Shown here in pieces: positions 23,054-23,106 of a DNA stretch of 64,000 bases. The notes beneath the pieces are model-generated. The model was not told where the DNA came from. It ran no database searches and worked only from the letters and a program-made list of their open reading frames with translations. Position numbers and translations under genes: made by a program. The first letter of the stretch is position 1. Every line of letters starts with the position of its first letter. The DNA is taken from the NCBI RefSeq assembly GCF_053078305.1, contig NZ_CP166879.1; one strand, 5' to 3'.

Positions 23054-23106
23054 CGAATATCTGAAATGATATGTAGTTTTCTGTACAGAATCATTTCAGA
23101 TATTCG
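23054..23106. repeat. 17-bp perfect inverted repeat (cgaatatctgaaatgat / atcatttcagatattcg) around a 19-bp spacer containing the 10-bp palindrome tctgtacaga
   Basis: Read directly; located about 260 bp upstream of the tpsA start in a 1.4-kb AT-rich non-coding region. Confidence 0.6.

Follow-up and report, generated by a model that had tools for sequence, protein, structure and literature searches.

A single-copy inverted repeat upstream of tpsA in O-island 47 of Escherichia coli: a candidate structure-selected stem-loop

Leader stem-loops that serve RNase III processing and transcript stability are known from the E. coli rnc and pnp leaders and from the R1.1 site of T7. Inverted repeats are also read as DNA: members of the NarL/FixJ family bind them as dimers, and the RcsB, EvgA and NarL boxes are palindromes of 14-20 bp in all, each taken by one dimer. 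Symmetry in DNA can in addition be a by-product of replication. Template switching in imperfect inverted repeats is documented in E. coli and yields apparently compensatory changes in one step.

The element described here is a 53-bp dyad at positions 23054-23106 of the window, that is, of the whole 64,000-nucleotide stretch of DNA analysed. The window is from E. coli and the region is O-island 47 of O157:H7 (z1528-z1556), which adjoins tRNA-Ser and ycdU and is found in nearly all O157:H7 strains. The island carries the virulence regulator GrvA (32424-33236; listed as a ToxR-like regulator in an initial sequence-only reading of the window), a fimbrial operon and a two-partner-secretion operon. 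No study on the regulation of the O-island 47 two-partner-secretion operon was found in the literature searched, and reviews of OI-47, locus-tag searches and small-RNA catalogues contained no mention of the intergenic region that holds the dyad. The dyad is an uncharacterised example of an ordinary, familiar kind of regulatory cis element in a virulence-associated island, and it leaves our understanding of any element class unchanged. It is the most conspicuous conserved non-coding feature of a shared control region, and it provides a precise mutational target for finding out how silent adhesin loci get switched on.

Setting, geometry and copy number of the dyad

Two divergent start codons bound the 1.39-kb intergenic region (22794-24183, ~33% G+C) that holds the dyad. 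On the minus strand, tpsA (18981-22793), whose product in other strains is a 1270-aa two-partner-secretion exoprotein, starts at 22793. This is 261 bp from the dyad, in agreement with the distance of about 260 bp given in the sequence-only reading. Downstream of tpsA on the same strand are tpsB and then ~15 genes of lipid/polyketide type. On the plus strand, a 207-aa gene (24184-24807; ECs_1281 in strain Sakai), whose product has a predicted NarL/FixJ (RcsB-like) fold, starts at 24184, 1078 bp from the dyad, and heads a chaperone-usher fimbrial operon. The Sakai coordinates of the dyad are 1349762-1349814, between ECs_1281 and ECs_1282.

In the window, tpsA is interrupted by a TGG-to-TAG change at codon 697 (20703-20705, minus strand), leaving ORFs of 696 aa and 554 aa; in O157 and most other strains the gene is uninterrupted, at 1270 aa. 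Apart from this change, the coding sequence matches that of O157 at 98.3% identity, with no indels. In strain A16, the complete genome closest to the window, IS903B truncates tpsA, and tpsB and several downstream genes are deleted (L087, 5909-6877). The nonsense change and the A16 insertion and deletion together indicate that the operon is decaying independently in more than one lineage.

An inverted-repeat search of the window returned two arms of 17 nt each, CGAATATCTGAAATGAT at 23054-23070 and ATCATTTCAGATATTCG at 23090-23106, which are 100% complementary and separated by a 19-nt spacer (23071-23089). The letters match those quoted in the sequence-only reading, and the 17-bp perfect arms claimed there were recovered in full. 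The inner 9 nt of the arms are TGAAATGAT (23062-23070) and ATCATTTCA (23090-23098). The spacer contributes four further pairs in register with the outer dyad, TGTA at 23072-75 with TACA at 23084-87, around an 8-nt loop (23076-83). Either strand folds to this hairpin of 17 + 4 bp, in which 6 of the 21 pairs are G-C; our assignment of the predicted stem-loop to the minus strand is inferred and is taken up below. As RNA, the dyad of the window has a folding energy of -26.6 kcal/mol on the plus strand (z-score -8.1) and -24.9 kcal/mol on the minus strand (z-score -6.8). As DNA, the corresponding values are -17.5 and -17.0 kcal/mol, with z-scores of -8.0 and -7.3.

Within the dyad there is also a perfect palindrome, TTCTGTACAGAA (23079-23090). 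It had been described as a nested palindrome of 10 bp; the palindrome is real, but it is 12 bp long and off-centre, with an axis that differs from that of the outer dyad. The nesting holds in the lineage of the window. The corresponding sequence is TTCTGTACGACA in O157-type alleles and TTCCAGACACAC in the outgroup lineage introduced below, and in both of these the 12-bp palindrome is absent.

The dyad is the longest perfect inverted repeat (loop of 3-30 nt) in the 64-kb window, the runner-up having arms of 12 bp. The longest arm was 14 bp in 60 dinucleotide shuffles of the window and 13 bp in 2000 shuffles of the AT-rich intergenic region, compared to 17 bp in the dyad. These values bear out the earlier view that perfect 17-bp arms are improbable by chance, and the dyad is real, beyond chance.

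The dyad locus is present in 380 of 5426 complete E. coli genomes, with one copy in each. No second copy of an arm was detected in the window with up to three mismatches, save one match at chance level. The exact 17-mer gave 75 single matches in 100,044 species genomes, about the chance expectation; none of these 75 matches formed a dyad, and none was in Enterobacterales. When a covariance model of the hairpin was run on the window, on 49 kb of Sakai OI-47 and on related tpsA loci that lack the dyad, it found no further copy. A metagenome scan for the core plus N19 gave at least 120 matches; among the matches listed, five were homologous to the dyad locus and the others were palindromes unrelated to it. 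The dyad is a single-copy, locus-specific, vertically inherited cis element of O-island 47. A genome search for other copies, the check proposed in the sequence-only reading, found none in the window and one per island-bearing genome. The outcome named there as fatal to its proposal, a common repeat at many unrelated loci, did not materialise, the dyad being single-copy everywhere searched. Dispersed repeats of the REP, ERIC or MITE kind, which occur in many copies, were rejected on the same count of one per genome, and the terminal inverted repeats of MITEs were rejected because the outer 8 nt of each dyad arm are its variable part.

The same data bear on the idea that the dyad is a recombination site or the scar of a mobile element (a MITE, abutting insertion-sequence ends, or an inversion or integration site), to which we give hardly any credence. 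A long perfect inverted repeat within a horizontally acquired island, with IS903B inserted nearby in one strain, is what such an origin could leave. Against this stand the single copy per genome, with no further dyad in the island and none in the 100,044 species genomes, and the pattern of variable outer tips and conserved inner ends, which is the opposite of that of terminal inverted repeats. The annotation of the island core (grvA to ycdU) in the O157 and Sakai records includes no recombinase or transposase, and the sampled genomes include no inverted or empty-site alleles, all being collinear. The earlier suggestion of a recombination site is therefore not upheld by the copy number, the annotation of the island core or the variable tips. 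A site-specific invertible switch was likewise rejected, as neither a cognate recombinase nor alternative orientations were found among the sampled alleles.

Variation among alleles and in an outgroup lineage

Our comparison took in at least 11 distinct alleles from E. coli and a single outgroup lineage, which was represented by metagenome and SRA contigs (L088-L091) with the same gene order as the window. No match to this lineage was found among complete E. coli genomes. Between the outgroup and the window, the regulator is 56% identical and the TpsA N-terminus 87.5% identical. In the intergenic region, just the tpsA-proximal block of ~380 bp (22794-23170, minus strand) still aligns, and the dyad is inside this block, away from its edge. 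Among E. coli lineages, identity is ~91.5% in the intergenic region, 85% in the 121 nt around the dyad and 98.3% in tpsA. The higher intergenic divergence suggests either a mosaic, recombinant history or a fast-evolving control region. Further outgroups were sought through tpsA genes of 73-76% identity (Enterobacter-like, next to wzc), and in these the whole upstream block is absent. Two such Enterobacter-like homologues (L219 and L221) lie directly downstream of the capsule genes wza-wzb-wzc; both are truncated, one of them by an IS, and the fimbrial neighbour is absent.

Neither the inner 9 bp of each arm (TGAAATGAT and ATCATTTCA) nor the 19-nt spacing differs in any allele or in the outgroup. 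The arms vary among alleles at their outer 8 nt. In the window type the outer arm is CGAATATC on both sides; in the alleles L114, L127, L213 and L215 the outer arms are AGGATGTC and CGGATGTC, and 16 of the 17 pairs are kept. Arm positions 3 and 6 have changed on both sides, from A-T in the window type to G-C in these four alleles, and an A.C intermediate at position 6 persists in L214, L225 and L227. Other intermediates or one-sided variants are carried by L106, L216 and L226, by O157, and by L217, L224 and L082. The window and L114 types differ at 8 of 53 positions, with 17 and 16 arm pairs, respectively. Pairing has thus survived a local divergence of 15% around the dyad; the probability that five random arm substitutions keep at least 16 of 17 pairs is ~0.006.

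The outer arm of the outgroup has eroded, with two pairs left beyond a mismatch. The inner helix has changed from TGTA/TACA in E. coli to GTGTG/CACAC, which amounts to one compensatory pair and one gained pair, and the loop has changed from GTTTTCTG to the unrelated sequence ATTCCAGA. When 22 pairs were scored over nine alleles, 87.4% of the cells were paired, compared to 23-45% with the 3' partner slid, and 4 of the 22 pairs had changed on both sides. None of 500 shuffles reached the observed pairing or covariation score. As the comparison covers one outgroup lineage and few, closely related E. coli alleles, the compensatory changes represent few independent events. With that restriction, the dyad displays the compensatory substitutions that characterise a generic structured cis-acting RNA element. 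Collectively, these comparisons indicate that the dyad is selected to remain self-complementary.

The outgroup has a further structure next to the dyad. In L088 (5023-5043, minus strand), a 6-nt insertion, as compared with E. coli, creates GAGAAAC-TCGCC-GTTTCTC followed by TTTATTTTAT, which is terminator-like. Read in the tpsA sense, this extra hairpin directly precedes the dyad, so the outgroup has two tandem hairpins.

Paired changes could also arise by mutation rather than selection. On this account, which we consider distinctly unlikely, the dyad would be a quasi-palindrome with no function, and template-switch ('quasipalindrome correction') mutation, in which one arm is copied from the other during replication, would renew its symmetry. 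It would agree with the persistence of imperfect alleles in nature (L082, L106, L214, L217, L224 and O157), with the single mismatch carried by O157:H7, which makes up most of the genomes, and with the lack of a known transcript or phenotype for the dyad in the accessible portions of the literature and start-site tables searched. However, template switching keeps symmetry and not sequence, and the 18 core bases and the spacer length are the same in the outgroup, where the surroundings are ~60% alignable. In addition, the stepwise intermediates at position 6 argue for two mutations over one templated event.

The invariance of the 9 + 9 bp would suit a sequence-specific DNA-binding site equally well. 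The dyad could be a double-stranded DNA operator on which a dimeric or tetrameric regulator binds the half-sites TGAAATGAT and ATCATTTCA and controls tpsA, the divergent fimbrial operon or both; we rate this as unlikely, though a serious contender. The candidate proteins are the 207-aa neighbour, RcsB itself or another factor. The 207-aa protein is annotated as hypothetical and has no match in Pfam or NCBIfam. Its family has 11 representatives among 1.84 billion proteins, and two members give weak GerE matches. The AlphaFold model (pLDDT 83.4) matches full-length RcsB, EvgA, NarL and FixJ, with a predicted receiver domain and LuxR-type helix-turn-helix as in those proteins. From this model, a local DNA-binding regulator of an inverted-repeat-binding family probably exists, and the 207-aa protein is likely an orphan regulator of the fimbrial operon.

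As expected of an operator, the half-sites stay the same at constant spacing while the flanks vary. In addition, four of the five CTGAAATRA motifs of the 64-kb window are within the 1.39-kb intergenic region and could be several sites for one protein. These four are at 22922, 23061, 23091 (reverse complement) and 23688, two of them being the dyad arms. However, the outgroup shows poor conservation of the two extra motifs, and a distance of 28 bp between half-site centres (~2.7 helical turns, with 19 bp of separation) is too wide for one NarL/FixJ dimer to span. An operator also leaves unexplained the spacer helix kept by compensatory change and the co-varying outer arm positions, and the complementarity runs across 'spacer' positions that a dimer would leave unread. 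Alleles with different outer arms share one identical regulator protein (WP_001039007.1). GrvA is of the OmpR/ToxR type, which usually binds direct repeats. An operator for a dimeric regulator, one of the options in the sequence-only reading, therefore gains from the invariant 9-bp half-sites and the neighbour's predicted RcsB/NarL-like fold, but loses on the 28-bp spacing and on the combination of one regulator with different outer arms. Fur, FNR, CRP and ToxR boxes, compared by eye, were rejected for misfits of register or spacing with the dyad.

Among the three options that had been offered, namely operator, recombination site and RNA hairpin, the hairpin fits best, the operator is weaker and the recombination site is unsupported. 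The hairpin is favoured because of the compensatory changes in the outer arms and the spacer helix, the free loop and the pairing kept at 15% divergence. We tentatively propose that the dyad may act as a structure-selected stem-loop in RNA of the tpsA sense, a plausible reading that we place a little short of probable.

Strand preference, promoters and terminators

Several features distinguish the two strands. The one-sided transitions at arm positions 2 (L224), 5 (O157 and L217) and 6 (the L214 group) each leave a G.U pair on the tpsA-sense strand and an A.C mismatch on the plus strand, and the same is true of a change beside the arm in O157-type alleles. In total, four one-sided transitions give G.U on the tpsA-sense strand compared to one, in the inner helix, on the other. 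The fraction of paired cells is 87.4% on each strand. Minimum free energies in AGG-type alleles are -23 to -29 kcal/mol for the sense strand and -19 to -27.5 kcal/mol for the antisense strand; the sense and plus values are -28.5 and -22.4 for O157, -27.0 and -20.6 for L214, and -26.0 and -19.1 for L217. The sense-strand energy is lower in seven of nine alleles and more uniform, an advantage that may be due merely to G+U-rich composition, and the window allele is slightly better on the plus strand. The covariance model scored 79.7 bits on the minus strand and 46 bits on the plus strand, but it was built from the minus strand and these scores are not independent evidence.

Between the dyad and the tpsA start there is a second inverted repeat, AAAAAACAA-N10-TTGTTTTTT (22937-22964, minus strand). 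It is conserved in the outgroup, where its single C-G pair has become T-A, a compensatory change. The RNAalifold consensus of a 403-nt block was -71.7 kcal/mol in the sense direction compared to -47.4 kcal/mol in the antisense direction, and part of this gap may come from the G+U richness of the sense strand. Together, these comparisons suggest a modest preference for tpsA-sense RNA over the other strand.

In the part of the EDL933 Cappable-seq data available, tpsA has one internal start site, further antisense ones and no site in the 560 bp upstream, and on that portion of the data the operon appears silent in culture. Alignments revealed an extended -10-like element, TGATAGGAT (22882-22890, minus strand), which is conserved in the outgroup and which a consensus promoter scan did not call; it is a possible promoter of tpsA. 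On the sense strand a short way upstream, within 22882-22919, TTATTTTTCGTGATTTTTTATTG is likewise highly conserved in the outgroup, and the two elements together may form the tpsA core promoter and an activator site. If TGATAGGAT were the sole promoter, the dyad would be outside the mRNA, ~170-230 bp upstream of the start site. In consensus promoter scans, the number of matches did not exceed that in shuffles, and no position-conserved site emerged upstream of the dyad.

Two other accounts of the region were rejected. A search of 22794-23300 for the RfaH ops element, GGCGGTAGnnTG, with up to two mismatches gave none, and an RfaH-dependent operon leader was set aside because the element is missing from the tpsA leader. 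A small ORF of 30 aa across the dyad (23033-23125) is interrupted by TAG in O157 alleles.

The hairpin might instead form in RNA of the other strand (plus, the fimbrial direction), or be an insulating terminator or pause site for stray transcripts coming either way; we think both of these quite improbable. For the window allele in the allele-by-allele folding, the energy is -25.3 kcal/mol on the plus strand compared to -24.0 kcal/mol on the minus strand, and the inner-helix U.G wobble in O157-type alleles is a plus-strand pair. The best promoter-like site for the fimbrial direction, however, is ~670 bp downstream of the dyad. As to termination, the outgroup hairpin has CTGTTTTGT after it on the tpsA-sense strand and a further terminator-like hairpin before it. 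Although CTGTTTTGT comes directly after the shorter stem of the outgroup, the terminator scan makes no call there either. In E. coli, the T run on the minus strand begins 10-12 nt past the stem, and on the plus strand the hairpin is followed by an A-rich tract and no U tract. Just 6 of 21 stem pairs are G-C, and the consensus scan calls no terminator at the dyad. An intrinsic terminator was rejected for want of such a call in the window or O157 and of a GC-rich stem with a direct U tract, and a terminator at the 3' end of a transcription unit was rejected because no conserved ORF ends beside the dyad.

A canonical terminator-like hairpin, of a build unlike that of the dyad, is found in the fimbrial operon at 25417-25451 (plus strand), where TACTGGCTGGCA-GTAAA-TGCCAGCCAGTA is followed by TTTCTT; the stem is GC-rich and 12 bp long, and the loop has 5 nt. 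It lies between the gene for the fimbrial major subunit, directly after it, and the chaperone gene. This is the usual site of an attenuator that sets the ratio of subunit to assembly proteins.

Rfam 15 at gathering threshold called, in the whole window, a tRNA and Ysr251 alone, both away from the dyad. The match to Ysr251, a Yersinia small RNA, is at 43728-43921 (plus strand), with 189 bits against a threshold of 100, and is antisense to the 3' end of an ORF at 43723-44787. A permissive scan of 22700-24300 gave sub-threshold matches of hairpin shape, such as miRNA precursors and the Lig thermometer (25.8 bits compared to a threshold of 51.5).

Possible function and comparison with known elements

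In the proposed stem-loop reading, RNA of the tpsA direction (minus strand) would contain a long AU-rich stem-loop, ~21 bp in E. coli. The RNA carrying it could be the long leader of the ~20-kb tpsA-tpsB-lipid/polyketide operon or a short transcript starting just upstream of the tpsA promoter. A near-perfect duplex of two turns is of a kind processed by RNase III, or able to block decay that depends on the 5' end or to block read-through, and the hairpin would in this way determine how abundant or how stable the tpsA-sense transcript is. Transcription of the dyad, the strand that is relevant and the action of the hairpin are all inferred. A more specific possibility, and a long shot, is that the AU-rich leader hairpin with its invariant sequence is read as RNA by a dedicated factor, which would place the ~20-kb operon under antitermination-type or post-transcriptional control coupled to the divergent fimbrial operon and its orphan RcsB-like regulator. 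If true, such control of the tpsA-tpsB-lipid/polyketide operon would be undescribed.

Of the known systems, the RNase III leaders of rnc, pnp and T7 R1.1 are resembled in several respects. The E. coli alleles have the duplex length required for RNase III (~20 bp or more, two helical turns), with stems of 17 + 4 bp in the window allele and 16 + 2 + 3 bp in the O157 allele (sense strand), and the outgroup stem is ~16 bp. As in those leaders, the dyad in E. coli alleles is a near-perfect duplex of about two turns (21-22 bp) with small internal irregularities, it precedes a coding region in the sense direction, and its pairing is kept in preference to the loop sequence. In contrast to them, the outgroup dyad is shorter (~16 bp, with a mismatch and a bulge), and the core of 9 + 9 bp is invariant in sequence beyond the needs of a purely structural site.

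The NarL/FixJ operators (the RcsB box, the EvgA box and the NarL 7-2-7 arrangement) share with the dyad the form of an inverted repeat in the promoter region of surface adhesins, and the product of the neighbouring gene has a predicted RcsB/NarL fold. The boxes measure 14-20 bp, whereas the dyad half-sites are 28 bp apart from centre to centre. Template-switch hotspots are similar in that the arms differ by single mismatches that appear 'corrected' to symmetry in some lineages; they differ in that the core and spacing of the dyad are conserved across a deep split, for which mutation alone is no explanation. Intrinsic terminators likewise consist of a stable intergenic hairpin, and a T-rich run is found somewhere downstream of the dyad on the tpsA-sense strand, but the dyad stem is AU-rich, the T run is 10-12 nt off and the element is at no gene's 3' end. 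Finally, REP/BIME and ERIC/IRU elements and MITEs are, like the dyad, intergenic palindromes, imperfect to perfect, that can form hairpins; unlike them, the dyad is strictly single-copy and locus-specific, with no relatives elsewhere.
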